Shown here: positions 90-28,527 of the stretch, in pieces
How the letters are laid out: the number at the start of each line of letters is the position of its first letter
Numbering within the stretch: position 1 is the stretch's first letter
Assembly (NCBI GenBank): GCA_021399395.1
Contig: JAAFKJ010000026.1
Location: 1-46,223 of the forward strand
DNA: 46,223 bases
Origin: Candidatus Heimdallarchaeota archaeon
GTDB taxonomy: Archaea; Asgardarchaeota; Heimdallarchaeia; Heimdallarchaeales; Heimdallarchaeaceae
Reading direction: 5' to 3'
Notes under the pieces: generated by a model
The model's input: only the letters and a program-made list of their open reading frames with translations
What the model was told of the DNA's origin: nothing
Database searches by the model: none
Position numbers and translations under genes: made by a program

Positions 90-144
90 TATATCCAGAT
101 GATGAAATATATAAAGGGGATAAGAAGAACATAATCTGATTACA

Positions 145-978: not shown

Positions 979-1046
979 GTAACTCTTGAGTTACTTTTTT
1001 CTTATTTTCTCGATAGTTTTTTATTTATTAAATTTATGAGTTTCTT

Positions 1047-1694: not shown

Positions 1695-1695
1695 T

Positions 1696-2226: not shown

Positions 2227-2281
2227 TTGAGTAAAAATGAGCAAAAACAGTTATAAAACTATGTAAATAAAAAAATGAAAA

Positions 2282-9998: not shown

Positions 9999-10745
9999 TT
10001 AATGAACAAAACTAATTTCCTTTGATTCTTCAATGGTTACTGTCAATTCTTCATTCTCATTATAAAGTATAAGAAGTCCATCATTTCCAATACCCTTACA
10101 CTTATAGGTTTTTGAATTGAAGATGTGTTTCTTTGAATGATTCAGTAGGTTAGTATTATAATCTGAAACAAGATTGGAAATCTGATCGAACATCACTTCT
10201 TCTAGATAGTGGAAAAGGTTTTCTGACAGTTTTTGTCTTAACTCATTTAAGTTAAGCTCAAGATTCAAAGCTTCGAACAAACTAGTTGCTTTAATTTCCT
10301 TTACATCAGCTAAATCTTCTTTAGATGAATTGACATTAAGACCTATCCCAATTAAAAGATGATTCCTACTTTTAGTTAAGATTTCAAGTAGAATGCCACC
10401 AATTTTTTGGTTCTCCAAGTAAATGTCATTTGGCCATTTTATTTCAACATCTATACCACAGAATTCTTTGAGCGTTTTTAGAATGCTCAGAGCTACAGCA
10501 TAATGAATAAATCTCATCTTTTTTGGCTCTAGTAACTCATCAATGACAAATACATACGTTCCATAAAATCCTCCTTTAGGAGAACACCATGTTGAATCAT
10601 CTCTTCCTCTACCAATTGTTTGTTTTTCTGCGAGAATGAGTAGTGGAGTATCTTGGTTCTCACTAATGTGATCCAATACAACATCCATAGTTGATGAAAC
10701 AGAATTATACCTTATAATCCGTAACTTCTCATTATCAAAATTCAC
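9999..10745 (-). CDS. birA: Biotin--protein ligase (no HTH domain)
   Basis: SSTMD, QTIGRGR...W.SP.GG, IKWPNDI, KIGGIL, IGIGLNV; GTG start at 10745 avoids overlap with the divergent gene. Confidence 0.88.
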   Translation of the reverse strand: MNFDNEKLRIIRYNSVSSTMDVVLDHISENQDTPLLILAEKQTIGRGRDDSTWCSPKGGFYGTYVFVIDELLEPKKMRFIHYAVALSILKTLKEFCGIDVEIKWPNDIYLENQKIGGILLEILTKSRNHLLIGIGLNVNSSKEDLADVKEIKATSLFEALNLELNLNELRQKLSENLFHYLEEVMFDQISNLVSDYNTNLLNHSKKHIFNSKTYKCKGIGNDGLLILYNENEELTVTIEESKEISFVH

Positions 10746-10847
10746 AATAAACACTCTACAGCTGATGATTGATATATCTATGCCATGTGCTTTAAAATTT
10801 TTTAGGATACAAGGAAAAGCTATTTTTATAAGACAATTAAAGGTATT

Positions 10848-12425
10848 ATGATGCCTTCGGAAAAAGAACACATTCCTGAATCTAATAATGATAAATACAT
10901 AGATTTAGAGAAAATGAGAAAACATAGCAAAGAAAGTGGAGGAAGTGAGAAGATAGCTATTCAACATGAGAAAGGAAAGCTTACAGCAAGAGAAAGAATT
11001 ACTATTCTTGTGGATGAAGATTCTTTTCATGAAATTGGTGATTTTGTTACACATCAATCAACTAAATTTGAGATGTCCAGTAATCGACCAATGGGAGATG
11101 GAGTTATAACTGGCTATGCAACAATCAATGAAAGACCTGTGTATGTGTATAGTCAGGATTTCACTGTATTTGGAGGAAGTTTAGGAAGGGCTCAGGCAAC
11201 TAAAATTTGTAAAATAATGGATCTAGCTGTTCAAACAGGGTCTCCTATCATAGGTATTTTAGATTCAGGTGGTGCAAGAATACAAGAAGGAGTAGCTTCT
11301 CTAGCTGGTTATGGAGATATTTTTTATAGAAACTCTCAAGCGTCAGGGGTAATTCCGCAGATATCAGTGATCTTAGGGCCTTGTGCAGGAGGAGCTGTTT
11401 ATTCTCCTGCTTTAACAGATTTTATCCTTATGAATAAGAAAAACTCATTTATGTTTGTCACTGGACCAGAAGTTGTTAAAGCTGTTACTGGTGAAGAAGT
11501 CTCTTTTTATGATTTAGGTGGAAGTGAAGTTCATACCGAAAAAACTGGTGTCTGTCATCTAGTAGGAGAAACAGAAGAACAAACATTACAATTAGTTAAA
11601 AATTTAGTATCATATATCCCCTCAAATAATCTTGATGATTCACCAATCTCTGCAGACTCAATCAAGGAAACTAACCAACTTCTATTGAGAGAGATCTTAC
11701 CTCAACAATCAGATGAACCCTATGATATGAAGGACATCATCAATACGATAATTGATTCTAACAGTTTCCTAGAATTACAAGAGAAATGGGCTAGAAACAT
11801 CGTTATTGGGTTTTCAAGAATACAAGGATCTACAATTGGAATAATAGCCAATCAACCATTATTTTTAGGAGGTGCTATTGATTTCAATGCAGCTGATAAA
11901 GCTTCTAGATTCATTAGATTTTGTGATTCATTCAACATACCTCTTCTGACTTTGGTTGATGTGCCAGGATTCCTTCCAGGAATAAAACAAGAGCATGAGG
12001 GATTAATCAGGCATGGAGCCAAACTTCTTTTTGCCTATTCAGAAGCCACAGTACCAAAGATCTCTGTGATTGTTCGAAAAGCATATGGGGGGGCTTACAT
12101 TGTAATGAGTTCCAAACATTTGGGGACTGATTTGAATCTAGCTTGGCCTACAGCTGAAGTCGCCGTTATGGGTCTAGACGGTGCAAGTAGAATACTTCAC
12201 AAAAACAGACTTAATACTGAAAATAATAAAGATGAAGCTCTTGATAGTTTTGTTGAAGAATACAAGAAGGAATTTGTTAATCCTTACCAGGCAGCTGAAT
12301 TGGGTTATATTGACAAAGTTATCTTTCCTGAAGAAACTAGAAAAGAAATTATCTCAATACTGGAGGTTCTTCAAAATAAGAGAGAGCAATCTCCAAGAAG
12401 AAAACACGGAATCTCTCCAGTTTAA
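10848..12425 (+). CDS. pccB: Acyl-CoA carboxylase carboxyltransferase subunit (PccB/AccD single-chain type), copy 1
   Basis: GKLTARERI, DFTVFGGSLG, DSGGARIQEG, GPCAGGAVYSPALTD, DVPGFLPG, RKAYGGAY, KHG. Confidence 0.92.
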   Translation: MMPSEKEHIPESNNDKYIDLEKMRKHSKESGGSEKIAIQHEKGKLTARERITILVDEDSFHEIGDFVTHQSTKFEMSSNRPMGDGVITGYATINERPVYVYSQDFTVFGGSLGRAQATKICKIMDLAVQTGSPIIGILDSGGARIQEGVASLAGYGDIFYRNSQASGVIPQISVILGPCAGGAVYSPALTDFILMNKKNSFMFVTGPEVVKAVTGEEVSFYDLGGSEVHTEKTGVCHLVGETEEQTLQLVKNLVSYIPSNNLDDSPISADSIKETNQLLLREILPQQSDEPYDMKDIINTIIDSNSFLELQEKWARNIVIGFSRIQGSTIGIIANQPLFLGGAIDFNAADKASRFIRFCDSFNIPLLTLVDVPGFLPGIKQEHEGLIRHGAKLLFAYSEATVPKISVIVRKAYGGAYIVMSSKHLGTDLNLAWPTAEVAVMGLDGASRILHKNRLNTENNKDEALDSFVEEYKKEFVNPYQAAELGYIDKVIFPEETRKEIISILEVLQNKREQSPRRKHGISPV

Positions 12426-12427
12426 CT

Positions 12428-13936
12428 CTATTTTTTATTGTGACCTTGATGTTTTTCAAGTCTATTTATCTCTCTCCATCTACTCTTTTTCTTAGATATC
12501 TTAGTGAGATTTTTATGTACAAGCTTCTTGTTCCCATTAAGAAAACTATCAGTTGTGATTAATGCGGCGAGTTTCAGTTTCTGATGTTGGTCGATCAATT
12601 TCTTCATTCGATTTTCATTTAAGAACAAGTTTGTAATCTCACCCTCTCGAAATTCTGGTGACTTTAGAATTGCTTTGTGCAGATAAATGTTAGTAATAAC
12701 CCCATCTATCTTTAATTCCTTCAACATATTTAGTGATTTTTCAATAGTTTTTTCTCTAGTTGTGCTTTTAACAACTAGCTTACCAACTAGAGAATCATAC
12801 TTGTTTGGAACCAAATAGTTTGGATAGATGAAAGTGTCGAATCGAACATTTTCTTCTACTGGAACTGTGAGATTTGTAATTATACCTGTTTGTGGATAGA
12901 AACCATTGAATGGATTTTCAGCATTTATTCGAAATTCTATAACATGACCATCAAAGATTACTTCTTCTTGTGTGTAGCTCAGCACTTCATTATTAGCGAT
13001 TCTTAATTGCTCAATGACAAGATCTATTCCCGTAATCATTTCGGTTACTGGATGTTCAACTTGGATTCTTGAGTTGATTTCATTGAAGAACAATTGATTG
13101 TTTTTCCAGAGAAACTCTACTGTTCCAATATTTGTATAGGATAAAGATTTAACTAGTGAACAAACCTTCTGGCCAAGGCTATCTATAATCTCTTTTGAGA
13201 GGAAGGAAGGTGCTTCTTCTATAATTTTTTGATGAGCACGTTGGATTGAACACTCTCTATCACCAAGATGTATGATGTTATCGTGATTGTCAGCTAAGAA
13301 CTGTATTTCAATATGTCTGGGACCTTCCAAGTACTTCTCAAGATATACGGCATTATCACCGAATATTTTTTCTGCAACGGACTGGCATTCAATAAAACTT
13401 CTTTCCAAATCTTCATTCTTTTTAACAACCTCTATTCCTCTTCCTCCCGCTCCATATACTGCTTTAATGATAACGGGATAACCTATAGTATCTGCTGCTT
13501 TTTCAGCTTCAGAAATAGAATATATTACACTAGAAGAACCGGGGATAACTTGAAGACCAATTTCTTTTGCACTTTTTTTTGCTTCAAATTTATTGCTCAG
13601 TCTTTTTAGAACAGATGCTTTAGGTCCAACAAAAATCAGATCATTCTTTTCTACTTGTACTGCAAAATTTGCATTTTCACTAAGAAATCCGTAACCTGGA
13701 TGAATACCATCAGATTGAGATTGGATAGCAATATCTATGATTTTTTCAATATTCAGATAAGTCTCTTGAACTGAACCATTTCCTAAACAGAATGCTTCAT
13801 CTGCCATTTTGACATGAAGTGAAGATGTGTCAATATCAGAGAAGATAGCAACTGTTTGGATATTTAAAAATCGGCATGCTCTTATTATTCTTACAGCAAT
13901 TTCTCCACGATTAGCTATAAGGATTTTTTTAAGCAT
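12428..13936 (-). CDS. accC: Biotin carboxylase subunit, copy 1
   Basis: ILIANRGEIAVR, IHPGYGFLSEN, GAGGRG, RHIEIQ, RECSIQR, RIQVEHPVTE, RINAE, YDSL. Confidence 0.92.
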   Translation of the reverse strand: MLKKILIANRGEIAVRIIRACRFLNIQTVAIFSDIDTSSLHVKMADEAFCLGNGSVQETYLNIEKIIDIAIQSQSDGIHPGYGFLSENANFAVQVEKNDLIFVGPKASVLKRLSNKFEAKKSAKEIGLQVIPGSSSVIYSISEAEKAADTIGYPVIIKAVYGAGGRGIEVVKKNEDLERSFIECQSVAEKIFGDNAVYLEKYLEGPRHIEIQFLADNHDNIIHLGDRECSIQRAHQKIIEEAPSFLSKEIIDSLGQKVCSLVKSLSYTNIGTVEFLWKNNQLFFNEINSRIQVEHPVTEMITGIDLVIEQLRIANNEVLSYTQEEVIFDGHVIEFRINAENPFNGFYPQTGIITNLTVPVEENVRFDTFIYPNYLVPNKYDSLVGKLVVKSTTREKTIEKSLNMLKELKIDGVITNIYLHKAILKSPEFREGEITNLFLNENRMKKLIDQHQKLKLAALITTDSFLNGNKKLVHKNLTKISKKKSRWREINRLEKHQGHNKK

Positions 13937-13957
13937 TTGAGAATATTTCAGAAGATG

Positions 13958-13967
13958 TTTATTAAAT
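13958..13967 (-). promoter_or_regulatory. Archaeal TATA box of biotin carboxylase 1 (likely leaderless transcript)
   Basis: ATTTAATAAA on the minus strand ending about 22 nt before ATG 13936; same spacing as at the paralog. Confidence 0.5.
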
Positions 13968-14106
13968 TCTTTTATATTTCATACTTTGAAGATAATAGAC
14001 CGCATTCTATTGGGTAGAATTTAAAGTTTGTTTCATTATATGAGTAAAGAATTTTTGGTCATGAAAAGAGATGTCGTTTTTATTCGACTTGTAAGATACT
14101 AGTTTA

Positions 14107-15684
14107 ATGTATCAAAGACCTGAGAATCTAAATGAGATTCAAGAAAATAATATATTTAGTACTCTTCATGATAGAAGGAGAAGGAGTAAAGAGGGAGGAG
14201 GTAAAAAGCGAATTGAGAATCAACACAAGAAAGGAAAATTAACTGCTCGTGAAAGGATTGAGCTATTGGTTGATGAAAATTCATTTAACGAAATAGATTC
14301 ATTTGTAACTCACCAGTCTACAAAATTTGATATGGCAGGCACTAAACCTTATGGTGATGGTGTTGTTACTGGTCATGCGAAAATCTCAGGCAGAACTATT
14401 TACGTTTATAGTCAAGATTTTACAGTTTTTGGTGGGAGTCTAGGAAGAGCTCAAGCAACAAAAATATGCAAAGTGATGGATCTCGCAATTAAAACTGGAA
14501 ATCCTATAATTGGTTTGTTAGATTCTGGTGGTGCTAGAATACAAGAAGGAGTGGCTTCTCTAGCTGGTTATGGAGATATCTTTTACAGAAATACACAAGC
14601 ATCTGGTGTTATTCCGCAGATTTCTGTTATCTTAGGACCATGTGCAGGTGGTGCTGTCTACTCTCCTGCCTTAACTGACTTTGTTCTCATGAACAAAGAG
14701 AATTCATTTATGTTTGTTACAGGTCCAGAAGTAGTTAAGGCTGTAACTGGTGAGGAAATTTCTTTCTATGATCTAGGAGGAAGTAATGTTCATAGTAGTA
14801 TAACTGGAGTATGCCATCTAGTTGGAGAAACTGAAGAAGATACATTAGATTTAGTTAGAAAATTAATGGCTTATCTTCCATCAAATAACCTAAATGATAC
14901 TCCTTCAGATCAGCATCTGCTTGATGTAAATACTCAGCAGAATTTAAGAGAACTCATTCCCGCAGAAGAAGATGAACCTTATGATATGAAAAGCATCTTA
15001 GGGATTATAGTTGATTCAGATAGTTTCCTTGAGCTACAAGAAGATTGGGCAAAGAATATAATAATAGGATTTTCTCGATTGAATGGTAGCACAGTTGGTA
15101 TAGTAGCAAACCAACCCTTGTATCTGGGAGGAGCTATTGATTTTAATGCGGCTGATAAAGCATCAAGATTCATAAGATTTTGTGATTCATTTAATATTCC
15201 GATTCTAACATTCGTTGATGTGCCAGGATTCCTTCCTGGAATAAAGCAAGAACATGAAGGAATTATAAGACACGGCGCAAAACTTCTATTTGCCTATTCA
15301 GAAGCTACTGTTCCGAAGATTTCTGTGATTGTTCGAAAAGCCTATGGGGGGGCTTACATTGTAATGAGTTCCAAACATTTGGGGACTGATGTAAACTTAG
15401 CTTGGCCTACAGCTCAGATAGCTGTAATGGGATCCGAAGGGGCATGTAGGATACTCTATCGCAGTAAATTGATAGGGGTTGATAATCCAGAACAAATCTT
15501 AAAAGAATTCACTGAAAAATTCAAGGAAGAATTCGCTAATCCTTACCAAGCAGCTGAATTAGGTTATGTTGACAAAGTCATTTTTCCAGAGGAGACGAGA
15601 AACGAAATAATTGTCTCTCTCAGTATTTTGAGGAATAAAAGAGAACAAACACCCAGGAGGAAACATGGAATTTTTCCAGTTTAG
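14107..15684 (+). CDS. pccB: Acyl-CoA carboxylase carboxyltransferase subunit, copy 2
   Basis: Same motif set and same length (525 aa) as copy 1; ends 9 nt before the megasynthase start. Confidence 0.92.
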   Translation: MYQRPENLNEIQENNIFSTLHDRRRRSKEGGGKKRIENQHKKGKLTARERIELLVDENSFNEIDSFVTHQSTKFDMAGTKPYGDGVVTGHAKISGRTIYVYSQDFTVFGGSLGRAQATKICKVMDLAIKTGNPIIGLLDSGGARIQEGVASLAGYGDIFYRNTQASGVIPQISVILGPCAGGAVYSPALTDFVLMNKENSFMFVTGPEVVKAVTGEEISFYDLGGSNVHSSITGVCHLVGETEEDTLDLVRKLMAYLPSNNLNDTPSDQHLLDVNTQQNLRELIPAEEDEPYDMKSILGIIVDSDSFLELQEDWAKNIIIGFSRLNGSTVGIVANQPLYLGGAIDFNAADKASRFIRFCDSFNIPILTFVDVPGFLPGIKQEHEGIIRHGAKLLFAYSEATVPKISVIVRKAYGGAYIVMSSKHLGTDVNLAWPTAQIAVMGSEGACRILYRSKLIGVDNPEQILKEFTEKFKEEFANPYQAAELGYVDKVIFPEETRNEIIVSLSILRNKREQTPRRKHGIFPV

Positions 15685-15693
15685 GTGATTTGA

Positions 15694-18600
15694 ATGAAAA
15701 CAAGAAGACAAATAATAAACGAGATAGACCCAACTAGAATCATTTGGGGATATTCTCCTAAAGGTATAAGCAATCCACAATTATCTATTGAACTTTCCCA
15801 GAAAGGTGGAGTAGGTCTAGTAGATCTTGAAGGGTTAGATGAACAATCAATTTCAAACATTTTAGAAACTTGTAGTAAAAAAATTCCAAAAGAAAATATT
15901 TGGGGTATAAAACTTTCAGATGTTTCTCAGATTGAAGTGGTAAATAAGATGGAGCATATTCCTATTTTGATAATTCCTAAAAAAATCGAAATAGAGCAGT
16001 TAATGAGTCTAACTTGTGAGTATGATTGGCTTATTGCCGAAGTACGTAATGTAAGTGAAGCACAAGAGAAAACTGAATGGGCTGATTTCTTCCTTGTGAA
16101 AGGTTTTGAATCTGGAGGAAGTATCGGTGAAAAGTCATCTTTTATTCTAATTCAAGAATTTAACGAAGTAGGTTACCCATTCATTATACAAGGTGGAATC
16201 GGTGTTTATAACATAATCAGTGCTCTAATTGGTGGTGCTTTAGGAGTAGTACTTGAAGAACAACTTTTACTACTTCCTGAATGTCCTCTTACAGCTGAAA
16301 CTAAAAAATATCTTGCTTCTCTTGATGAAAATGACACATACATCATCGGTGAAAGTTTTGATAGAAAATTTAGAATAACGGGAAAGATTGCAAACAAATG
16401 GATAAGAGAATTCAAAACAATCGAAAAAACTACAACACAAGATAACTTTCAAGAACTCTCTCAAAAGATAGAGGAAGTTTCTAGAACATCTGCTTTTCTT
16501 GCAGATCAGGAAATAAAAAATTCTTTTATTCCTCTTGGTGTAGGATTGAGGTTTGCAAGTTTTATATCAGACAAATTCGGTGACTTAACCGCTTTCCTGA
16601 GCGGTGTTAAACAGATTATAAGAACCCAAATGGTAAATCTTTCAGACAATTGGTCATTTTCAGAAGAAAACGAATTTGCTATAAGTCTTGGGATCAAACT
16701 TCCAATTATCCAGGGACCAATGGCAAACATAACTGATTCAGCTGATTTTGCTTTACAGGTTTTTAATGAGGGTGCACTTCCAGTTTTAGCCTTCGGAGGA
16801 TTGTTGAAAGAAGAAGCAGAAATTTTATTCAAAGAATTACATGAGAAGTATCCAAAAAGTGCTCCTTATGCTGGAGGAATCATCGGTTTAGAAGTCATGA
16901 AAGAAAGACGAGACGCGCATATCTCATTGATTCAAGAAAACAAAACACCATTATGTTTGGTAGCAGCAGGATCAATACAGTTAGCATCAAGAATTCAGAA
17001 AGCTGGGACAAAAGTTATACTTCACACACCTGCTTTATCCTTCTTCAAAGATGCGATTCAAAATAAAATTGAATATTTGATTTTAGAAGGAAGCGAATGT
17101 GGAGGACACATTGGAATATTAACTTCATTCACTCTTTGGGAATCAATAATTCAGTATGTTGAAAGAGAGAAGAGTAATATCTCTGACAAATTAAAGATTG
17201 TATTTGCTGGAGGGATAAGTGATGATAGAAGTACAGCTATGCTAGCTGGAATGGTATCAAATCATCTTGATTATATCTCCCCAGGAATTCAAATGGGGAC
17301 TGCTTACCTACTTACTGAAGAAATTGTTAAGTGCAAAGCTTTAACCTCAATATATCAAGAACATGTTCTAAATTCTTCTGAAACAAAAGTGATAGGAACA
17401 ACAGTAAATACCAGAGCTAGAGCTATTCCTTCTGAGTTTGTTGAAACGACATTGAAACTAGAATTGGAAAGAATCAGAGAAGGTATGTCTATCCATGATA
17501 GAAAGAAAGTATATGAGAAAGACAATTTAGGCGCTTTACGAATTGCAGGTAAAGCTGAAATTTGGAATGAGAAGTATAAACCTGGAGGAGCTTCTACCCA
17601 ATTTGTTTCAGCAAGCAAGAAGATTCAAGAGAGTAAAGGCTGTTATATGGCAGGCGAGCTTATAGGTCTTAAAAGAAACATTCTGAGAATTAGAGACTTA
17701 CATCATGATGTTGTTAAGTCAGGAAAAATTTATGCCACGCAACAAATTGCTGAACTTGAAAAGATTCATCTCGATGCAGTGACTTCAGATGTCCAGATCA
17801 AAGAGTCTATTTCACTTCCTATAAAGAATAGAGTAGCAATAGTCGGGATGGGATGTATTCTTCCAGATGCTGAAAATATTAGCCAATTCTGGACCAATAT
17901 TATACAGAAAAAATATTCAATCACTGAAATCTCTGACGAAAGATGGAAAGCCTCACTGCATTTTGATGAAGATAAAACAGCTGAGAACAAAACCTATTCA
18001 AAGATTGGTTCATTTATCAAAGAATACAATTTTGATTCAATTAGATATCGCATTCCACCAAAAATAGCTGAAAGAATGGATGATGTTCAAAAATGGTCAT
18101 TAGATTCAGCGAGACAAGCTCTAGAAGATGCTGGAATTCCGACTGATGGCAAATTAAAATTACCTATTGCAGTAATTGTGGGAAACTCTTTGGGGGGTGA
18201 AATTCAACGAAATACCAACAAGTTATTCTTTGTACCAGAATTCATTGAAGAAATAAAAACAAACATAGTATTTCAAGAATTAACTGAAGAAAAACAAAAG
18301 AATATGATCAACCATCTATTAGATTTTTCAAAAAAGCACTATCCATCTATTACTGAAGATTCGATGCCAGGTGAATTATCAAATATAATTGCTGGAAGAA
18401 TAGCAAATGTGTTCAATTTGATAGGTAAATCTATGACAACAGATGCTGCTTGTGCATCTAGTGTGGCAGCGATTGATACAGCTGTAAATTCATTACTCTC
18501 GGGGGAAATTAATGTTGTTTTAACAGGAGGAGCTGATAGATCTATGGATGTTGCTACCTATGTTAAATTCAGTAAAATTGGTGCTTTATCTGGGACAGGA

Positions 18601-21600: not shown

Positions 21601-24600
21601 TTTGTTTCTCATGAAACTTATACTCCAGCAAGAGGAGGAAGTGCTGAATCTGAAATTGAAGCACTGAAAAGCGTTTTTGGAAAAGACGCTTGCAAAATTA
21701 CTATAGTAAATACAAAAGGTTTTACTGGACATGCAATGGGAGCAGGAATTGAAGAATGTGTTGCTATTAAATCAATGGAGAAAGGTAGAATTCCGCCTAT
21801 AGCAAATATTGCTAAAATAGATCCTTTGTTCTCTGAATTACGGTTTTCTGAAGGAGAAAATCGTAGGGTAAAATACGCAATTCGATTAGCAGCTGGATTT
21901 GGATCTCAAGTAGCATTCACTGCTTTTAGGCTTAATACCTTTGAAGATAGGTATGATTTGATTCTTCATGATGAATGGTTATCTGGATTAGGTGGTAATA
22001 TGGGTAGAACTTTTTTGGATGGAAGAGTCTTGAAAATGACAACAAAATCTAAATTGGAGATTTCCACATCAGCAAAATCCAAATCCCATGATATCGCTAA
22101 GAACTTAGTATCTACAGATATTTTACCAAGTGTTATCTCAATAATCTCAGAAATCACTGGATATGAGACAAATCTGATCGAAGCTGAAATGCATCTAGAA
22201 GAAGATCTAGGAATTGACACAGTTAAACAAGCTGAGATTTTTGGAATTCTTCGGGAAAAGTGGGATTTAGAATTAGATGATACAGTAAGTCTTGCAGAAT
22301 TTACAACACCTCAAAAAATTGCTATATATGTTCAAAGCAATGTTGGTGAGATAGGTTCTTCTGAACCAGTAGACCCCCCTAATTTGATGGAAACTTCTGA
22401 AGATTTGAACAGAAAAATCAGAGAGGTTATATCAGAAACCACAGGATATGAACAAAATCTAATAGAATTTGATATGGATCTAGAGGAAGATCTCGGTATA
22501 GATACAATAAAACAAGCTGAAATCTTTGGAGATATAAGAGAGATATATGATCTCCCCATTGATGAATCAATAAGTTTAGCAGAATTCAGAACAATCAATG
22601 ACATAGCCGGGTATGTCCACCGATATGTTGGAGATGTACCATCTATTACTTCTGAAATTTCAGAAAGTGTTGAAGAATTACCTAGAACTGAGAAGGAGCA
22701 AGACCTTGAAGACACTGTCAGAATTGATAAACTGATTACGGTTCCTATTCCTTTGGATAAGAGCAAAGCTGATAAAGTAAACTTAACTGAGCTTTCTACT
22801 TTAGTAATTGATATCAATTCCTCATTAGGTGAGGAGTTAGCAAGTTCTCTAAAAGAAAGAAAAGCGAATTATAAGATCTGTAAGTTGTTAAAAGAAAAAT
22901 CGGAATTAGAAGAAACAAATTTTGATCTATTTATCCTGTTGTTACCAGATCCAATCTCAGAACCTGGTTTGATTGACCAAGAAATCTACACTAAGATATT
23001 TACATTGTTTCAGTCACTAGAACTGAACTCAAATCAGAGAATTATTGCAGTATCAAAAGAAAATTATTTTGGTTTAAGAAAAGATGCAAATCCTATCTCT
23101 GGAGGAATTTCTGGTTTTGTGAAAACAATAGGTATAGAGTTTGAAATGGCCTATAAGCACATTTATTCTGAGAACATAAAATACATTATTCAAGAGTTGG
23201 AATATTGGGATACAAATGTTGAAATTGCATATGAAAAGAAAAATAGATTTACACTCGCAAATCTGGATATAAGTGACTATCTTACTCAATCTTCAAAAAT
23301 TCATGTTAAAGGCAGCGATTTACTACTTGTTACTGGGGGAGGTAGAGGAATTACCTTCAAATGTTTAGAAGCACTCTGCACAATTGTAAAATCCAAGGTA
23401 GCTATTTTTGGTATAGAAGACATTTCTAATGTTGATTCGGAAGCTCTTCTCTTATCTCCTGAAGAATTAGAGGAAAGAAAGCAGAAACTGATAGAAGAAC
23501 TGAAAGAAACTGAAGAGAAAGTCACTCCAGTTCTTATTGACAGACATTGGAATAATTTCTTATTCGGACTTGAAGTAGTAAGGAATCTTGAAATTTTAAG
23601 AAAGAAGAAGATAAAAGTCGAATATAGAAGAGTTGATGTTACAAATACAAAAGATGTAGAAGAAGCTATAAGAGATATTGAAAGTCATTTCGAGACCTCT
23701 GTTAGTCACATCATTCATGGAGCCGGTCTAGAGGAATCCAAGTCATTTAAAAAGAAGAAACTTGACTTTTCGAGTCTCATTGTTTCAGTAAAGGTTGAAG
23801 GTATTTGGAATATACTCAACTCAATTGATACAAAGAAACTGAAACGAGTAGTATGTTTTACATCAATTGCAGGTAGATATGGTAATAGAGGACAAGTAGA
23901 CTATTCATTCGCTAATGGGTACCTTTCAAGGCTTTGTTGGAAGTTGAATCAACAAGGAGTTTCAGCTGTAGCCTGTGATTGGTCAGCATGGGGAGGTGTA
24001 GGAATGGCAACAAGAGGGTCTATTATGGATATATTAACCTCTCAAGGTATAAATCCTATTCCTGTGCAAGAAGGTACAGAGAGTTTTGTCAAACTCTTCT
24101 TAAACACAATTGGAGATGAAGTAATCGTATCATGTGGTCTTGGACCTTTTGAAAAGATGTCTGAAATCAAATCAAAAATCAAAGAAAGTAAATATCCCTT
24201 AATTGAGAGTTTGGAGTATTATGATTCAACTTTCTTTACCAGAAAAGCAATTAATTCAGAGAATGACCTATATCTAAATGATCATCAAATACAACAAACA
24301 CCGATATTTCCAGGTGTGATGGGATTAGAATTTTTTGCAGAAACTTTTGAAATACTATCATCACAAAAACCTGTTAGTTTTTCAAACGTAGAATTTAATA
24401 CTGCTCTAAAGATTCAACAATCTCAAACAAAGGAGATTTATGTTGAATACAAATCCGATATAGGGAAAATGAAATTAAAATCAGATTTCATCGCAAAGAT
24501 TGATCCAAGTAAAAGAAGAGAAATTGAGCATTTTACAATAAATGTTGATGTTTCTACAAGGAGAAAGAAAGCAAAGAAATCAGAAAATGAAATTCGCGAA

Positions 24601-25773
24601 TCTGATATCAATCTCTTATCAAAAGAGGATATATATTCGTTCTTCTTCCATGGAGAGAGTTTTCAAGTATTAGAGAAATTAATTAATCTAGATGGAAAGA
24701 AAGCTATTTCGCAGATAGAAATTCCTGACAAAAATCTTTTCTCTGATAAAAGGAGTAAAACTACTCTGAACCCTCTTGCAATTGAAGCAGCATTACAGAC
24801 AGCGGGATTATATGACTACATTGTCAATAGCAAAACTTCTTTGCCATCAAAAATAGAGACAATAACCTTCTACAATAATAAAAAACCAAAATATATTGTT
24901 TCAATATTCACTGGAATTAATACAACTCATAGTACATTTGATGTAGAAATATTAGATGAAAAAAGAAACATAATCGCTAAACTAGACGGCTTGGGGATGA
25001 TACATACTCAACTCAACTTCAAGGAAGAATCAGAAATTAAAGATAAACTTCAGGAAACTTTCCGATACTGGGAAATCACTAACTCACTAAACCATGATAA
25101 TTTCAGAATAATTCCAGTCCGAATAGTAGCTTCTCTTCTTTCAACTAATCCCAAAACTGTTTTGTCTTCCTTGACATCTAAAGAAAAAGAACGATTTGAT
25201 ACATTCAAGAACGAGAAACGAAGAATTGAGTATCTTTCTGGTGTCATTGCATCTAAGGAACTCTATTCTCTTCTAGTTAATAAAGAGAACAAACCTAAAG
25301 AAATTGAGATTAGAAAAGAAAAGAAAGGTCGACCATACTTTTATGATCTTAAGAAGGATGAACCAAGTAATTTACATCTTTCAATAACTCATTCTGGAGA
25401 ATTTGCTATTGCAGCTGTTGGTCAATCACCTATTGGAATTGATATCGAAAAAATAGAAGAAAGAAGTGAGTCTTTCTACAAAGAAGCTTTCACAGAAAAA
25501 GAAAGAAATGAGATCTCATCAGATGCTGAAAAAGGAACAATATATTGGACAATTAAAGAAGCAATAACTAAAGCACTTGGTGAAGGTTTACACCTTAATC
25601 TACATGATATCGAAATTTCAGAAAACCAAGAAAAATCCTCTTACACGATTGGATTCTCTTCTAAGGTAGCTGATACTGTACCGTATGATGCTGATTCATT
25701 TGAGATAACGAACAAGAGTTTCCAGAATTATACGATTACATATTGTGAGATTCGACAGGAGGATAAAAAATGA
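15694..25773 (+). CDS. Single-chain type I FAS/PKS megasynthase: ER*-ER-KS-AT-KS-ACP-ACP-KR-DH-PPTase
   Basis: FabK/PfaD-like IIQGPMA, EGSECGGH, AGGI, GIQMGT; KS1 DAACASS/EAHGTST/GHLK; AT GQGSQ/GHSLG/AFHS; KS2 NAACAS/SHETYT/GHAMG; two LEEDLGIDT.KQAE ACPs; KR VTGGGRGI/HGAG/GQVDYSFAN; DH DHQIQQTPIFPG; Sfp-type PPTase GRP/SITHS/GIDIE/WTIKEAITKALG; GGTGA SD at 15684-15688. Confidence 0.93.
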   Translation: MKTRRQIINEIDPTRIIWGYSPKGISNPQLSIELSQKGGVGLVDLEGLDEQSISNILETCSKKIPKENIWGIKLSDVSQIEVVNKMEHIPILIIPKKIEIEQLMSLTCEYDWLIAEVRNVSEAQEKTEWADFFLVKGFESGGSIGEKSSFILIQEFNEVGYPFIIQGGIGVYNIISALIGGALGVVLEEQLLLLPECPLTAETKKYLASLDENDTYIIGESFDRKFRITGKIANKWIREFKTIEKTTTQDNFQELSQKIEEVSRTSAFLADQEIKNSFIPLGVGLRFASFISDKFGDLTAFLSGVKQIIRTQMVNLSDNWSFSEENEFAISLGIKLPIIQGPMANITDSADFALQVFNEGALPVLAFGGLLKEEAEILFKELHEKYPKSAPYAGGIIGLEVMKERRDAHISLIQENKTPLCLVAAGSIQLASRIQKAGTKVILHTPALSFFKDAIQNKIEYLILEGSECGGHIGILTSFTLWESIIQYVEREKSNISDKLKIVFAGGISDDRSTAMLAGMVSNHLDYISPGIQMGTAYLLTEEIVKCKALTSIYQEHVLNSSETKVIGTTVNTRARAIPSEFVETTLKLELERIREGMSIHDRKKVYEKDNLGALRIAGKAEIWNEKYKPGGASTQFVSASKKIQESKGCYMAGELIGLKRNILRIRDLHHDVVKSGKIYATQQIAELEKIHLDAVTSDVQIKESISLPIKNRVAIVGMGCILPDAENISQFWTNIIQKKYSITEISDERWKASLHFDEDKTAENKTYSKIGSFIKEYNFDSIRYRIPPKIAERMDDVQKWSLDSARQALEDAGIPTDGKLKLPIAVIVGNSLGGEIQRNTNKLFFVPEFIEEIKTNIVFQELTEEKQKNMINHLLDFSKKHYPSITEDSMPGELSNIIAGRIANVFNLIGKSMTTDAACASSVAAIDTAVNSLLSGEINVVLTGGADRSMDVATYVKFSKIGALSGTGTRPFDENADGFVMGEGAGFIVLKRLEDALTDGNKIYAVISSIGSSSDGKGKGITAPNPEGQKRAIERAMEKAQIDTNEVDYIEAHGTSTVVGDAVELQVLEGIFKDRTSDHKLNVSSIKSQIGHLKSASGIASIIKASLALYHKKLPPSINVEKPNPNIDWNNSKLRINTEVSEWNSSSSVVARVGVSAFGFGGANYHAILEEFNPAKIQYEKKPQLSISENIQEEIDQSQISLQSIKPKLCYMFTGQGSQYLGMAKQLYENSEIVKEYFEKAEQIWYGYYTYSFKEIVFGSEKLSNESNKKRLTDTKFTQPAIFVVDVSIASLLAEEGIEPNIVAGHSLGEYAALVIAGALSFEDGLKAVIERGRSMSRAGNSVPGAMAAILAPINQVHEIVKGVKNCYVTVANYNSKNQTVVSGEIEGIEQVLEISKQKGITAKRLNVSTAFHSKIVKSVEEEMEKVLSRIEFNEPKIPVYSNATGKVYPPKPEEIRKLLVQQISSSVLWVNEIQNIYNAGARFFVEIGPKKALFSFVKDILQDKTDISAFTTLIPKQNEIETVETTVNQIRQFIDPASLADLDPQFKKIKTEQEIVFPGEIAVSPDSDFQSFVRNNSNYLENILKSGYELYSNYLGENEEVKSAKSVAPVRHQLIGVTGVGVGFPGKSRNVFDDGNIDAILSGENLIDSIREDIRQNMLDKNINRLVKSPEGIASFEEIDELTKVINLAGQLGNFDPVGDFKLDEKLLSSLDITFQLAICAGLEALNNAGIPLVKSSFRTSTGKVLEGDWALPEPLQDETGIIFASAFPGYDNLVKEIQEQTNSDNDKKFSRNFLFKILSMGHSQFAQLIKAKGPNTQINAACASTTQAIGIAEDWIRIGRCNRVIVIAADDASSENLLPWLGSGFLAAGGVTTEEKVENAALPFGKNRHGLIIGSAAAALILENEDAYNMRGVKPIVDLIGSSFLNSGFHGSRLDVQHISKAFQNFVEKIEEQYHIPRKSLAEEGMFVSHETYTPARGGSAESEIEALKSVFGKDACKITIVNTKGFTGHAMGAGIEECVAIKSMEKGRIPPIANIAKIDPLFSELRFSEGENRRVKYAIRLAAGFGSQVAFTAFRLNTFEDRYDLILHDEWLSGLGGNMGRTFLDGRVLKMTTKSKLEISTSAKSKSHDIAKNLVSTDILPSVISIISEITGYETNLIEAEMHLEEDLGIDTVKQAEIFGILREKWDLELDDTVSLAEFTTPQKIAIYVQSNVGEIGSSEPVDPPNLMETSEDLNRKIREVISETTGYEQNLIEFDMDLEEDLGIDTIKQAEIFGDIREIYDLPIDESISLAEFRTINDIAGYVHRYVGDVPSITSEISESVEELPRTEKEQDLEDTVRIDKLITVPIPLDKSKADKVNLTELSTLVIDINSSLGEELASSLKERKANYKICKLLKEKSELEETNFDLFILLLPDPISEPGLIDQEIYTKIFTLFQSLELNSNQRIIAVSKENYFGLRKDANPISGGISGFVKTIGIEFEMAYKHIYSENIKYIIQELEYWDTNVEIAYEKKNRFTLANLDISDYLTQSSKIHVKGSDLLLVTGGGRGITFKCLEALCTIVKSKVAIFGIEDISNVDSEALLLSPEELEERKQKLIEELKETEEKVTPVLIDRHWNNFLFGLEVVRNLEILRKKKIKVEYRRVDVTNTKDVEEAIRDIESHFETSVSHIIHGAGLEESKSFKKKKLDFSSLIVSVKVEGIWNILNSIDTKKLKRVVCFTSIAGRYGNRGQVDYSFANGYLSRLCWKLNQQGVSAVACDWSAWGGVGMATRGSIMDILTSQGINPIPVQEGTESFVKLFLNTIGDEVIVSCGLGPFEKMSEIKSKIKESKYPLIESLEYYDSTFFTRKAINSENDLYLNDHQIQQTPIFPGVMGLEFFAETFEILSSQKPVSFSNVEFNTALKIQQSQTKEIYVEYKSDIGKMKLKSDFIAKIDPSKRREIEHFTINVDVSTRRKKAKKSENEIRESDINLLSKEDIYSFFFHGESFQVLEKLINLDGKKAISQIEIPDKNLFSDKRSKTTLNPLAIEAALQTAGLYDYIVNSKTSLPSKIETITFYNNKKPKYIVSIFTGINTTHSTFDVEILDEKRNIIAKLDGLGMIHTQLNFKEESEIKDKLQETFRYWEITNSLNHDNFRIIPVRIVASLLSTNPKTVLSSLTSKEKERFDTFKNEKRRIEYLSGVIASKELYSLLVNKENKPKEIEIRKEKKGRPYFYDLKKDEPSNLHLSITHSGEFAIAAVGQSPIGIDIEKIEERSESFYKEAFTEKERNEISSDAEKGTIYWTIKEAITKALGEGLHLNLHDIEISENQEKSSYTIGFSSKVADTVPYDADSFEITNKSFQNYTITYCEIRQEDKK

Positions 25774-26534
25774 AAATAGAGCACTCTGATATTAATTTCA
25801 GAGAAGAAACAATTAATGGAGTTCTTTATCTTCCAGAAGATAAGAATCCTTCCCCTTTGATAGTTCATCTAAACGGGATGCCAGGGTTAGAACCAGAGAA
25901 AGAAGGTGAAAGATTTGCTAGAGACATGGTGGATAATGGGTTCGCTTACTATGCTTTCGATTATACGGGAGTTCGAAATAGTACAGGAACATTTGAGTAT
26001 TATTATTCTCAAGAAAATATCAATCAAGTAATCTCCTATCTTGTCCATCATCCTAAAATTGATCCTACACAGATTGCTCTAATAGGAGAAAGTTTTGGGG
26101 GAGCGATGGCTATATCACACACAGCGCGGGATCCAAGAGTTAAGTGTTTAGCCATAAGATCTCCTGTATATGATACAGATAAAGTTGCAAAGTTGAAAAT
26201 CTTTGACGGTTTATCCCAACTATGGAAAAGAAGTAAACAGATGAGGTTTCCAGAGGTTCATTTGAAGAAATGGTTCAAAGAACAAACATCTCAATACAAT
26301 CCCTCGAAACTCATTTCAAAAATCAGCTGCCCAATCCGATTTATAATAGGAACAAGTGATGAGATCCTAGCTGTAGACCAAATAGAGGAATTTTATGGAA
26401 AACTCTCCCCAGATATTGACAAAGAAATGAAAGTAGTTGAAAAAGCCAATCATAATTTCTCGAACGAGAAACACTTTGAAATTATGAAAACATATGTAAT
26501 AGACTTTTTCAGAGAAGTACTCACAGCGAATTAA
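25770..26534 (+). CDS. Alpha/beta hydrolase (candidate thioesterase)
   Basis: GESFGG nucleophile elbow, GTSD acid, ANHNF His; ATGA overlap with the megasynthase stop; GGAGG SD. Confidence 0.85.
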   Translation: MKIEHSDINFREETINGVLYLPEDKNPSPLIVHLNGMPGLEPEKEGERFARDMVDNGFAYYAFDYTGVRNSTGTFEYYYSQENINQVISYLVHHPKIDPTQIALIGESFGGAMAISHTARDPRVKCLAIRSPVYDTDKVAKLKIFDGLSQLWKRSKQMRFPEVHLKKWFKEQTSQYNPSKLISKISCPIRFIIGTSDEILAVDQIEEFYGKLSPDIDKEMKVVEKANHNFSNEKHFEIMKTYVIDFFREVLTAN

Positions 26535-27010
26535 GGTTGAATAATTAGAAGATGCTGATCTTGCACAACATTATCATTTTCTTTCACTGAAATTTTGAGA
26601 ATTTTCCCTGAACTGGGGGCAAAGATCCTATTTCTCATTTTCATAGCTTCAAGTATCAGAAGTTCTTGATCTTTTGATACCTCTTCTCCTTCTGTCACTA
26701 AAATTTTAGTTATCTTTCCTGGGATTGGAGCTGAGATTTTTATGTCTTTTTTTTCAATTTCACTTGATTTGGTGCTTAATACAGGTATGTAAGGTTTGAT
26801 TGTAAATTGCGTCTTCTCTCCATTGACAAAAAACTCATCGTTTGAAACTTCCACTGTGAAAGTGTGCCCATCAACATCTACCTTGTAAATAGAATTTATA
26901 CCTTGTTTGACTTCAGCTGAGAAAACTTCTTCATCTATGCAAATGTCACCGTTAGGAAGAATTTCAACAATATATTCTCTATCTCTAAACATGACTTTTT
27001 TCTTAGACAA
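26531..27010 (-). CDS. accB: Biotin carboxyl carrier protein
   Basis: APIPGKI..V..G..V, ILEAMKM.N biotinylation motif; TTG start at 27010 with AGGTG SD just after the BC2 stop (alternative ATG at 26992). Confidence 0.9.
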   Translation of the reverse strand: MSKKKVMFRDREYIVEILPNGDICIDEEVFSAEVKQGINSIYKVDVDGHTFTVEVSNDEFFVNGEKTQFTIKPYIPVLSTKSSEIEKKDIKISAPIPGKITKILVTEGEEVSKDQELLILEAMKMRNRIFAPSSGKILKISVKENDNVVQDQHLLIIQP

Positions 27011-27024
27011 ATATGACACCTGTG

Positions 27025-28527
27025 TTATCGATAACCATTTTGCTGTTCTAATTTGTTTTGTTCTCTCCATCTATTATAATCTTCTCTACTTCTTTGAATA
27101 TTGGAGATATCATAATCTTGTTTCTGCTTGTGAATTGTATTGGCAATAAGTAAAGCTACAAGTTTTAGTTTTTCGTAGTGATTGAGTATCTGGTTTATTT
27201 TTGTTCTTTCCAAAAAATCAGTTGTTATTTGTCTATGTTGAAACTCTTCTGTTTCAATAATTGCTTTATGAAGAGATATATTTGTGGTTAATCCTGATAT
27301 AGCTAGTTCATTTAAAGCTAAGCGGGATTTTTGTATTGCATCCTCTCTATTTTCTCCTCTAATAATTAGTTTACCAATGAGAGAGTCATATTGGTTTGGG
27401 AGATTGTAATTGGGATAAATGAAGGTGTCAAATCTTACATCATTCCCACCAGGTATATTCAAACTTAGAATTTTACCAGTTTGAGGATAAAATGCCTTTA
27501 ATGGGTCTTCAGCATTAATCCTAAATTCTAATGCATGACCTGAGAACTTGATATCTTTTTGAGAATAAGATAGTTCTTCATTGTTAGCTACTCTCAACTG
27601 TTGAACTACCAGATCTATTCCGGTAATCATCTCTGTGACAGGATGCTCTACTTGAATTCTAGGATTTATCTCGTTGAAATACAATTTTCTATCTTTCCAA
27701 AGAAATTCAGCTGTTCCAGCGTTTCTATATGAGAGTTTTTTAGCTAAATTACAAATCTTTTCACCAAGACTATTTCTCCTTCTTGCTGATATGAACGAAG
27801 GAGCTTCTTCGATAATCTTCTGATAGGATCTTTGAATTGAACATTCTCGATCTCCAATATGGATAACATTACCAAAGTTATCTGCTAAAAATTGAATCTC
27901 GACATGTCTAGGGGCATGAATGTATTTCTCAATGAAAACCTCACTGCTTCCAAAGAATTTGCTAGCTATTGTTTGACAACCCATCAGACTTATTTCTAAA
28001 GCATCTGGATTTTCAACAATTTCCATCCCTCTTCCCCCTCCACCGTAAGCTGCCTTGATGATAATTGGATAACCTATCTTATTGGTTATTTGCTCAGCTT
28101 CAGAAACTGAATTAATGTAACCTGATGAACCTGGAACTGTCAGAATTCCTGCTTCCTTAGCCATCTTCTTGGCTTCAATTTTATTTCCTAATCTGTGAAG
28201 AATTGAAGGAGACGGACCAACAAAAATCAATCCATTTTTTTCAACCTCTTCTGCGAAAATTGCGCTCTCACTAAGAAATCCATATCCTGGATGAATGGCA
28301 TCAGACTGAGATTTAAGAGCTATCTCAATGATTTTTTCAATATTTAGATATGTGTCTTGTACATCCCCACTACCTAAGCAGAATGCTTCATCCGCCATCT
28401 TAATATGGAGAGAAGTAGAATCAATATCAGAAAAAATAGCTACCGTTTTGAAATTAAGAAGTCGACAGGCTCTTATGATTCTGATAGCTATCTCTCCGCG
28501 GTTAGCTATAAGGATAGTACTGAGCAT
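27025..28527 (-). CDS. accC: Biotin carboxylase subunit, copy 2
   Basis: ILIANRGEIAIR, IHPGYGFLSE, GGGGRGM, NPRIQVEHPVTE, YDSLIGK. Confidence 0.92.
   Translation of the reverse strand: MLSTILIANRGEIAIRIIRACRLLNFKTVAIFSDIDSTSLHIKMADEAFCLGSGDVQDTYLNIEKIIEIALKSQSDAIHPGYGFLSESAIFAEEVEKNGLIFVGPSPSILHRLGNKIEAKKMAKEAGILTVPGSSGYINSVSEAEQITNKIGYPIIIKAAYGGGGRGMEIVENPDALEISLMGCQTIASKFFGSSEVFIEKYIHAPRHVEIQFLADNFGNVIHIGDRECSIQRSYQKIIEEAPSFISARRRNSLGEKICNLAKKLSYRNAGTAEFLWKDRKLYFNEINPRIQVEHPVTEMITGIDLVVQQLRVANNEELSYSQKDIKFSGHALEFRINAEDPLKAFYPQTGKILSLNIPGGNDVRFDTFIYPNYNLPNQYDSLIGKLIIRGENREDAIQKSRLALNELAISGLTTNISLHKAIIETEEFQHRQITTDFLERTKINQILNHYEKLKLVALLIANTIHKQKQDYDISNIQRSREDYNRWREQNKLEQQNGYR

Follow-up and report, generated by a model that had tools for sequence, protein, structure and literature searches.

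Introduction

The described synthases that come closest to the system reported here are the Pfa synthases of marine Gammaproteobacteria (PfaA/PfaD/PfaE), which make polyunsaturated fatty acids (PUFA), and the secondary lipid synthases known as Type R and Type S. In its published description, Type R has a ketoacyl synthase (KS), a malonyl acyltransferase (MAT), a chain length factor (CLF), three to six acyl carrier protein (ACP) domains and a ketoreductase (KR) in the order KS-MAT-CLF-ACP(3-6)-KR, with a gene for a phosphopantetheinyl transferase (PPTase); an acetyl-CoA carboxylase (ACC) gene was noted in the cluster once (PMC3098273). The same source places Type R in Acidobacteria, Elusimicrobia and Chloroflexi and Type S in Desulfobacterium autotrophicum, and it suggests that Type S may serve there as the central fatty acid synthase (FAS) of an organism without fabA and fabZ (Shulse and Allen, 2011, PMC3098273). 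In this study, we analysed a cassette built around a 3,359-residue megasynthase at positions 9999-28527 of a 46,223-nucleotide stretch of a contig from Candidatus Heimdallarchaeota archaeon (JAAFKJ010000026.1, assembly GCA_021399395.1); this whole stretch of DNA is called the window. The cassette is probably the acyl-chain factory of its lineage, which would feed a route to glycerol phosphate through FakA-like, DegV and PlsY proteins.

Eukaryotic membranes are made of bacterial-type fatty-acyl ester lipids, though the host lineage was an Asgard archaeon, and how this switch came about is a long-standing question. It has been reported that PlsY and PlsC are scattered among Asgard genomes (PMC6737245, PMC6431249, PMC9385802). 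A polyketide synthase (PKS) without an explained role was reported in 2020 from one Heimdallarchaeota genome, and its KS domains were described as nearest to PUFA KS domains in NaPDoS (PMC7472256). In their main text, Eme et al. (2023) use none of the words lipid, fatty acid, GGGP, polyketide or ether (PMC10307638). Among open-access papers, we found none on the cassette or on its link to a missing GGGPS.

Results

Domain organization of the megasynthase

Gene families in the window were assigned from the list of open reading frames (ORFs) together with Pfam and NCBIfam scans. An earlier note on this DNA had proposed that eight contiguous genes form a self-contained locus for acyl-chain synthesis. 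As shown in Table 1, the eight genes lie where the ORF list places them and belong to the proposed families. A BirA-type ligase, biotin carboxylases (BC), a biotin carboxyl carrier protein (BCCP), carboxyltransferases (CT), a PPTase, two KS domains, an acyltransferase (AT), a full set of KR, dehydratase (DH) and enoyl reductase (ER) domains, and a hydrolase with a catalytic triad are all present in the locus.

The megasynthase contains two FabK-like ER domains, a KS (KS1), an AT, a FabF-like KS (KS2), two ACP domains, a KR, a DH and an Sfp-type PPTase, in that order. KS1 has the motif residues Cys920, His1054 and His1093. In KS2, the segments NAACAS, SHETYTP and FTGH align on the Cys-His-His residues of FabF, and the catalytic Cys1825 is kept. 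The AT carries GHSLGE (with Ser1308) and TAFHS, which we take to be malonyl-specific motifs, and the PPTase domain carries SITHS, GIDIE and WTIKEA. All catalytic motifs of the megasynthase other than the carrier Ser are intact, as are the hydrolase triad and the BCCP motif. Since KR, DH and ER are each intact, the simplest product would be a largely saturated chain.

Among the NCBIfam models, PfaA (TIGR02813) scored best against the megasynthase, with 854.9 bits in four stretches, which is below its cut-off of 1010.1. The order of KS, AT, tandem carriers, KR and PKS-type DH is the same in the Pfa synthases, which also have a FabK/NMO-type ER and an Sfp-type PPTase. However, in the megasynthase the ER and the PPTase are fused to the other domains, a Cys-bearing FabF-like KS is inserted between the AT and the carriers, no PfaB, PfaC or FabA-like domain is present, and the carriers have Thr, not Ser. 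We take LGIDSIK, with the pantetheine on its Ser, to be the Pfa form of the carrier motif, and the megasynthase carriers do not have it. No FabA-like dehydratase/isomerase (PF07977) was found in the megasynthase, in the genome of the window (G000) or anywhere among the 47 genomes of its order, and therefore the protein would not be a PUFA synthase in the Pfa sense. Among solved structures, KS1-AT was nearest to PKS modules; the top row was 7zma, which scored through two KS stretches, and the nearest single module was CurL (389 bits). Judged by its domains, the megasynthase is a PfaA-like variant of the “secondary lipid synthases” and neither a PUFA synthase nor a eukaryote-type FAS.

The likeness to Types R and S was judged from the published description of their architecture alone (PMC3098273). 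As in Type R, a KS, a MAT, a KS-like/CLF position, tandem ACP domains and a KR follow one another and a PPTase is present. In contrast to both types as described, DH, ER and PPTase are fused here, the “CLF” position keeps a catalytic Cys, and the host is an archaeon. By the same description, the ACC gene in one Type R cluster and the proposed role of Type S in an organism that lacks fabA and fabZ both have a parallel in the cassette. The type I FAS of fungi and of the Corynebacterium-Mycobacterium-Nocardia group (AT-ER-DH-MPT / ACP-KR-KS-PPT) also has an FMN-type TIM-barrel ER and a C-terminal in-cis PPTase, but its domain order is different; the megasynthase has no MPT or FAS-specific Pfam domains, and its KS-AT and DH are of the PKS type. 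Animal-type FAS I has the order KS-MAT-DH-ER(MDR)-KR-ACP-TE, with an ER of the medium-chain dehydrogenase/reductase (MDR) type and a thioesterase (TE). The megasynthase, unlike it, has an N-terminal FabK/NMO-type ER, no MDR-type ER and no TE domain. We found no evidence for a specific relationship to eukaryotic FAS.

Full-length homologues of the megasynthase with 46-74% identity were found in genomes labelled Heimdallarchaeaceae, Heimdallarchaeota, Promethearchaeota, Hodarchaeota and Kariarchaeaceae. They are followed, at 30-33% identity, by uncharacterised type I PKS from Desulfobacter, Desulfobacula, Desulfospira, Desulforegula, Desulfomonilaceae and a Spirochaete. An unrooted KS1-AT tree was built with FastTree from 100 of 120 rows; the 20 rows covering <700 residues were left out. 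A Desulfobacterales/Spirochaete clade of 24 rows stood apart from a 76-row clade, which held every Asgard-labelled row and seven Desulfomonilaceae in an unresolved polytomy. Because of this polytomy, and because the tree is unrooted, the direction of transfer cannot be read from it. The PKS of Desulfobacter, Desulfobacula, Desulfospira and Desulforegula (~3,800-4,000 aa) and the PPTase-fused forms of Desulfomonilaceae (~3,550 aa) share with the megasynthase an N-terminal NMO-type ER, a KS, an AT and Thr-carriers reading DLGIDTVK. The Desulfobacterales forms differ from it in their three to six carriers, their separate deep clade and the lack of a PPTase domain in 23 of the 28 listed rows, and many of them have a C-terminal NAD-epimerase/3-beta-HSD-type domain in precomputed Pfam lists. 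The Desulfomonilaceae forms fall inside the clade that contains the Asgard rows.

Some variants of the megasynthase were also seen. In the sister family f3, the megasynthases (L017-L019; G030:C7, G026:C21; ~3,240-3,310 aa) have four carrier domains and no N-terminal reductase part, and no reductase was seen beside them in G030 and G026; their product may differ, as this part is missing. The closed genome G065 has two tandem KS-AT matches in adjacent frames of 1,510 and 2,729 aa (G065:C1:485125-489556), which suggests a split or partly duplicated megasynthase. A stand-alone ORF of 499 aa, away from the cassette in G030 (G030:C8:519559-520914), is 45% identical to the KS2 region. The megasynthases of G023, G008 and G012 were flagged as having one TGA inside; in G023, this TGA proved to be the terminal stop and not a selenocysteine codon.

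Table 1. Positions in the window of the cassette genes, the megasynthase domains and two nearby genes
Feature	Position	Residues	Strand	Matches and motifs
Purple-acid-phosphatase-like protein (PAP)	8072-9655			CARDB domain
BirA-type biotin-protein ligase	9999-10871		-	Pfam BPL_LplA_LipB 74 bits; TIGR00121 131.9 bits (cut-off 83.1)
Carboxyltransferase CT1 (12S/PccB-type), extra paralogue	10848-12425		+	Carboxyl_trans 609 bits
Biotin carboxylase BC1, extra paralogue	12428-13936		-	Biotin_carb_N, CPSase_L_D2, Biotin_carb_C
Carboxyltransferase CT2	14107-15684		+	Carboxyl_trans 611 bits
Megasynthase P0001, iterative type I	15694-25773	3,359 aa	+	best NCBIfam PfaA TIGR02813
FabK/NMO-like TIM barrel 1	15694-16653	1-320	+	weak; PDB FabK-type enoyl-ACP reductases, E 1e-7 to 6e-6
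FabK/NMO-like enoyl reductase 2	16681-17553	~330-620	+	NMO 82 bits; TIGR03151 FabK 108.6 bits; PDB 7l00 E 3e-15
KS1, PKS-type	17827-19251	712-1186	+	ketoacyl-synt 258.7 bits; Ketoacyl-synt_C 153 bits; KAsynt_C_assoc
AT, FabD-like	19327-20265	1212-1524	+	Acyl_transf_1 172 bits; TIGR00128 FabD 238.9 bits (cut-off 260.9)
KS2, FabF-like	20689-21948	~1666-2085	+	PDB FabF E 6e-24; Cys1825 and two His
Two tandem carrier domains	22126-22617	~2145-2308	+	PP-binding 43.9 bits; Thr2176, Thr2271
KR	23311-24003	~2540-2770	+	Pfam KR 94 bits; GGGRGIT at 2548, Tyr2737 (YxxxN); PDB PKS KR domains
DH, PKS-type double-hotdog	24238-24996	2849-3101	+	PKS_DH_N 34 bits; PS-DH 33 bits; His2864
Sfp-type PPTase domain	25156-25665	3155-3324	+	ACPS 63.9 bits; AASDHPPT_N; PDB Sfp E 3e-9
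Alpha/beta serine hydrolase, candidate chain-releasing thioesterase	25770-26534		+	Hydrolase_4, Peptidase_S9, DLH, BAAT_C
BCCP	26531-27070		-	Biotin_lipoyl 62 bits; EAMKM biotinylation motif
Biotin carboxylase BC2, conserved copy	27025-28527		-	three biotin-carboxylase domains; NF006367 597.6 bits (cut-off 597)
Membrane protein	29977-31665	562 aa		weak Acyl_transf_3, 25 bits (cut-off 31)

Threonine at the pantetheine site of the carriers

Both carrier domains of the megasynthase read DLGIDT(V/I)K, and the Thr aligns on the phosphopantetheine Ser of the PigH tandem carriers and of AcpM. We examined 120 proteins of the family, Asgard and bacterial. Carrier motifs, 350 in all, were obtained from 118 of them, the other two being truncated proteins without a motif; Thr was present in 342 of the 350 motifs and Ser in eight. 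Thr-carriers are also found in cultivable species of Desulfobacter, Desulfobacula and Desulfospira, and a fused PPTase motif was found in 66 of the 120 proteins. This conservation across the family argues for function under selection and not for decay.

The S36T form of E. coli ACP is described as a form not modifiable by pantetheine (PMC3340395). Since Thr stands at both sites of the megasynthase and the S36T form is unmodifiable, canonical priming is unproven here. The earlier note had counted carrier priming among the steps encoded by the locus; the in-cis Sfp-type PPTase bears this out in part, whereas the Thr at the pantetheine site departs from textbook priming. When other carriers and PPTases were sought in G000, hidden Markov models built from the family matched only the megasynthase, and the Pfam PP-binding model matched nothing else. 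The carrier system of G000 is closed: the only PP-binding domain found sits in the megasynthase. We found no paper on Thr in place of the carrier Ser in the open-access literature.

Carboxylase, hydrolase and neighbouring genes

BC, BCCP and 12S-type CT subunits, a biotinyl-Lys motif and a biotin ligase were all found in the cassette, as in a three-subunit biotin-dependent acyl-CoA carboxylase. The CTs scored best on the mmdA subfamily, below its cut-off, and the FabD-like AT suggests that the carboxylase acts on acetyl-CoA. CT2 has an orthologue immediately 5' of the megasynthase in every cassette compared. Orthologues of BC2 are 55-85% identical across all these cassettes, and BCCP is kept in them. 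CT1 and CT2 are 75% identical and BC1 and BC2 61%. Among the loci compared, the extra CT1/BC1 pair was otherwise found only in G001, and the locus has a single BCCP; a second substrate specificity of this pair is possible. No repressor domain was seen in BirA.

A spacer of 9 nt with a GGTGA site separates CT2 from the ATG of the megasynthase. The ATG of the hydrolase overlaps the megasynthase stop as ATGA and has an AGGAGG site upstream. From this spacer and overlap, CT2, megasynthase and hydrolase look like one operon. The hydrolase lies 3' of the megasynthase in all cassettes compared, and Ser108 (in GESFGG), Asp197 and His228 are invariant in six orthologues. Its position and coupling suggest a thioesterase that would release the chain.

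The earlier note had described the flanks as archaeal with eukaryote-signature genes, and this description holds: Mtd, a class II Asp/Asn-type tRNA synthetase, Nre, AOR, a Gtr1/RagA-like GTPase and an Arf-like GTPase were identified. PAP is the conserved neighbour of BirA in G001, G014 and G005. A membrane protein of 562 aa lies beside the locus, and nothing corresponds to it at the same place in G001. Scans of the window for Rfam families and tRNAs gave no match.

Conservation of the cassette and integrity of the assembly

Of 41 related genomes, 39 were found to have the megasynthase. It is present in 23 of the 24 genomes from the genus, and each of the order's four families has it. The arrangement PAP-BirA-CT-megasynthase-hydrolase-BCCP-BC-AlkZ-Nre-RagA recurs in G001, G014 and G005. 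Its six-gene core, BirA-CT-megasynthase-hydrolase-BCCP-BC, is also found in three further genomes: G043, G109, which is closed and consists of a single contig, and G141, a member of another family, where it lies on a 17.5-kb contig. BirA stands beside a CT gene in all six of these genomes. In G026 and G030 of the sister family f3, BC and CT still precede the megasynthase. The synteny search thus recovered the gene order in relatives at the level of genus, family and order and in a single genome from a different family, and since it recurs in related genomes, the arrangement is not due to chance.

We then considered whether mis-assembly or mis-binning could have placed bacterial DNA at this locus. 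Its nearest relatives outside Asgard archaea are indeed bacterial (Desulfobacterales, Desulfomonilaceae and Spirochaetes). However, the guanine-plus-cytosine (GC) content stays between 0.32 and 0.37 in all 2-kb segments and shows no step at the locus. Two studies, with sediment and cold-seep metagenomes, account for the six public runs in which the megasynthase sequence was found. In run X1, which may be the sample of the window itself, contigs of 6.5 kb and 12.8 kb cross the PAP|BirA and BC2|AlkZ junctions with a uniform depth (12-14x), and in run X3, from the other study, both junctions are bridged by contigs of 590 and 1,394 bases. PAP, AlkZ, Nre and RagA-like genes flank the cassette in other genomes too, and two genomes that are each closed in a single contig (G065 and G109) have the cassette. 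These results give no chimera signal and refute a chimeric bacterial insert, for which the remaining chance is negligible.

Lipid genes in the genome of the window

G000 is 81.8% complete. Three PlsY ORFs were found in it, of which PlsY_a scored 159 bits on TIGR00023 (cut-off 137), and a DegV gene lies 2.7 kb from PlsY_a. Twelve DegV (FakB-like) ORFs were found on contigs C174 (two in tandem), C84, C40, C56, C54, C24, C200, C18 and C119; the DegV/FakB-like proteins scored 218 bits on TIGR00762 and 129 bits on FakB1. In G153, 14 DegV genes were counted at the strict threshold. Two Dak2 proteins, which stand alone and are 218 and 228 aa long, matched the N-terminal kinase part of YloV/FakA with 144-250 bits and DhaL with only 28. 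These kinases correspond to the N-terminal third of FakA only and are far below the cut-off for full-length FakA.

This set resembles the FakA/FakB and PlsY system of Firmicutes in its DegV/FakB-like proteins, its FakA-N-like kinase domain and a PlsY above the TIGR00023 cut-off, and in f5 genomes a FakA-like gene is also near PlsY. It differs in the short kinase, in its 12 DegV paralogues, in the lack of PlsX, in the lack of PlsC from the family of the window and in the retention of G1PDH. PlsC, PlsX, DhaK and FabA/FabZ were not found in the search of G000.

Genes of archaeal lipid synthesis were found as well. G1PDH scored 447.7 bits against the equivalog cut-off of 413, and G000 has a CarS-like and a MenA-like gene. 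A UbiA protein, adjoining an FAD oxidoreductase, had its best matches, all sub-threshold, to DGGGP synthases. Near this gene lie an Rce1-like CAAX protease, a Ras-family GTPase and then a HEAT-repeat protein of 784 aa (G000:C75:29805-32755; L045:805-3755). Neither PF01884 nor tblastn queries taken from genus g3 (its weak PcrB-like ORFs) and from G022 (its GGGPS) found a GGGPS in G000, though non-detection with one Pfam model does not prove the function absent.

Distribution across Asgard genomes

A fixed sample of 151 Asgard genomes represented the phylum and a set of 47 genomes the order; the counts carry no statistical test, and related genomes are not independent. The synthase was found in 23 of the 151 genomes (f1, the family of the window, 12/13; f2 1/1; f3 4/4; f4 1/1; f6 1/1; f26 2/2; f13 1/25). 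GGGPS was detected in 121 of the 151 genomes, namely in 118 of the 128 without the synthase and in three of the 23 with it (G022 and G141 strong, G026 weak). PlsY was detected in 41 genomes (21/23 with the synthase, 20/128 others), the FakA-N-like kinase in 23 (19/23 and 4/128) and DegV at E <= 1e-60 in 20 (19/23 and 1/128). A CarS-like gene was found in 140 of the 151. The earlier note had suggested a search for Pls-type acyltransferases; besides the PlsY genes of G000 and of the 21 synthase-bearing genomes, it recovered PlsC within the order only in f3 (11/12) and f4 (3/3), with none in f1 (0/31) or f2 (0/1).

Within the order, GGGPS had one strong match in 47 genomes (G022) and four weak partial matches of 28-49 bits in genus g3, and FabA/FabZ had none (0/47). 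As G1PDH was found in 45 of these 47 genomes, the missing GGGPS does not result from incomplete genomes. The closed genomes G065 and G109 each have the synthase and three PlsY ORFs and no GGGPS match. In these two genomes, which belong to a sister genus, PlsY is directly upstream of BirA, and in three f5 genomes a FakA-like gene lies ~1.3 kb from PlsY. The GGGPS of G022 is on a contig (C45) with a GC content of 0.305, compared with 0.327 at the synthase locus of that genome, and only one neighbouring ORF has a homologue in G000, a weak one. The lineages with the synthase are mostly without detectable GGGPS and have PlsY, FakA-like and DegV genes. This makes the lipid-divide connection that the earlier note had drawn stronger.

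Two further observations concern these genes. In G022, G1PDH and a DegV gene are direct divergent neighbours (G022:C62:58233-60293). The PlsY matches of f13 are open frames of ~400-425 aa, about twice the usual length, which suggests a fused form.

Discussion

We propose that the cassette is the acyl-chain factory of its lineage and that it feeds a FakA-like/DegV/PlsY route to glycerol phosphate, a reading that we consider somewhat better than even. The carboxylase would make malonyl-CoA, and the FabD-like AT would load malonyl on both carrier domains, primed by the in-cis PPTase. KS1 and the FabF-like KS2 would extend the chain, and KR, DH and the FabK-like ER would reduce it in every round, giving a long, largely saturated chain, possibly a hydroxy or trans-enoyl one. 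The hydrolase would free the chain as a free acid, which the FakA-N-like kinase with DegV (FakB-like) proteins would turn into acyl-phosphate, and the PlsY paralogues would use this to acylate glycerol phosphate. Lipids of this Heimdall-type order would then draw their acyl chains mainly from the synthase. We infer the carboxylase substrate, the product, the release step, the kinase function and the lipid destination from sequence.

Several observations weigh against this proposal. Thr at the pantetheine site of both carriers means that canonical priming would not be the textbook reaction. CT homologues are present in 78 of the 151 Asgard genomes, many of them without the synthase, and CT was rejected as a marker of the synthase for this reason. 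The hydrolase resembles generic serine esterases only. PlsX was not found in G000, nor PlsC in any of the 31 genomes of its family. G1PDH, the CarS-like gene and the DGGGPS-like UbiA persist in G000, which leaves room for isoprenoid lipids. The distribution also has exceptions: f26 has the synthase without PlsY, a FakA-like gene or a strong DegV match, f5 and 15 of the 25 f13 genomes have PlsY without the synthase, f20 has no GGGPS match and yet no synthase, and G141 and G022 have synthase and GGGPS together. The genomes counted are related and not independent samples. In the one lipid analysis made on a cultured Lokiarchaeon, a member of a different lineage, only archaeal lipids are stated to have been seen (PMC13400652).

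The most serious alternative, which we regard as unlikely though a real contender, is that its product is not bulk membrane chains but a specialised secondary lipid or polyketide, such as a long-chain hydroxy or polyene alkyl compound with a role in an envelope layer, in storage or in signalling, and that PlsY, FakA-like and DegV proteins handle scavenged fatty acids. The family does sit among pfa-like secondary lipid synthases, most products of which are unknown according to the published survey (PMC3098273), surveys of the antiSMASH type file such a locus as a PKS cluster (PMC7472256), and the solved structures closest to KS1-AT are PKS modules. The exceptions in f26, f5 and f13 and the persistence of G1PDH, CarS-like and DGGGPS-like genes point in the same direction. 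However, the cassette is core-like in its presence in 39 of 41 related genomes and contains its own carboxylase and biotin ligase. No other ACP was found in G000, and neither FabA nor FabZ, the dehydratases of type II FAS, was found in the order. PlsY is part of the locus in one genus, and the distribution of the synthase mirrors the lack of GGGPS.

A Pfa-type PUFA synthase making chains like eicosapentaenoic or docosahexaenoic acid is very improbable. The best NCBIfam match to PfaA, the tandem carriers, the PfaD-like ER, the PfaE-like PPTase and the Heimdallarchaeota KS reported nearest to PUFA KS in NaPDoS (PMC7472256) would fit it, but the PfaA score does not reach the cut-off, there are only two carrier domains, the cassette has no PfaB or PfaC genes, and the FabA-like domain is missing from the protein, from G000 and from the 47 genomes of the order. 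It is also improbable, slightly less so, that the carriers are not pantetheinylated and that the system uses other chemistry (CoA-bound intermediates or another prosthetic group) or is inactive. The alignment of Thr with the modified Ser of solved carriers and the behaviour of the E. coli S36T form (PMC3340395) favour this explanation. Its weakness is that archaeal and bacterial proteins alike have kept the Thr and that an intact Sfp-type PPTase is fused in more than half of the family, with all other catalytic motifs intact.

If the cassette is the acyl-chain factory proposed above, a further step may be considered, which we hold only tentatively and think possible but rather doubtful: that the PlsY ester step has replaced, in the order, the GGGPS (PcrB family) step in which archaeal lipid synthesis forms its first ether, giving acyl-ester or mixed acyl/isoprenoid membranes. 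Fatty acids from the megasynthase would be converted to acyl-phosphates by the FakA-like kinase and DegV and transferred by PlsY onto glycerol phosphate. The backbone may be glycerol-1-phosphate from the retained G1PDH; bacterial PlsY and PlsC have been reported to accept both stereoforms of glycerol phosphate (PMC13400652). The second chain could come from PlsC in f3 and f4, or from the DGGGPS-like prenyltransferase in the family of the window. Alongside this, the dedicated fused PPTase would place phosphopantetheine on Thr. The Thr-carriers are a separate and readily testable biochemical oddity, which is common to the cultivable Desulfobacter relatives.

Beyond the PKS and the scattered acyltransferases already reported, what is new is a whole Heimdall-type order with an apparently complete acyl-chain factory, its own predicted malonyl-CoA supply, and PlsY, FakA-like and DegV proteins (with PlsC in two families). 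The same order is without detectable FabA/FabZ and nearly without detectable GGGPS. With a specific lineage, genes and lipids named, the question of the membrane switch becomes directly testable. If the acyl-ester reading is true, these archaea would be a living intermediate of the transition from archaeal to bacterial membranes, in the class nearest to eukaryotes. The cassette is relevant to the question of how eukaryotic ancestors acquired membranes of the bacterial type.

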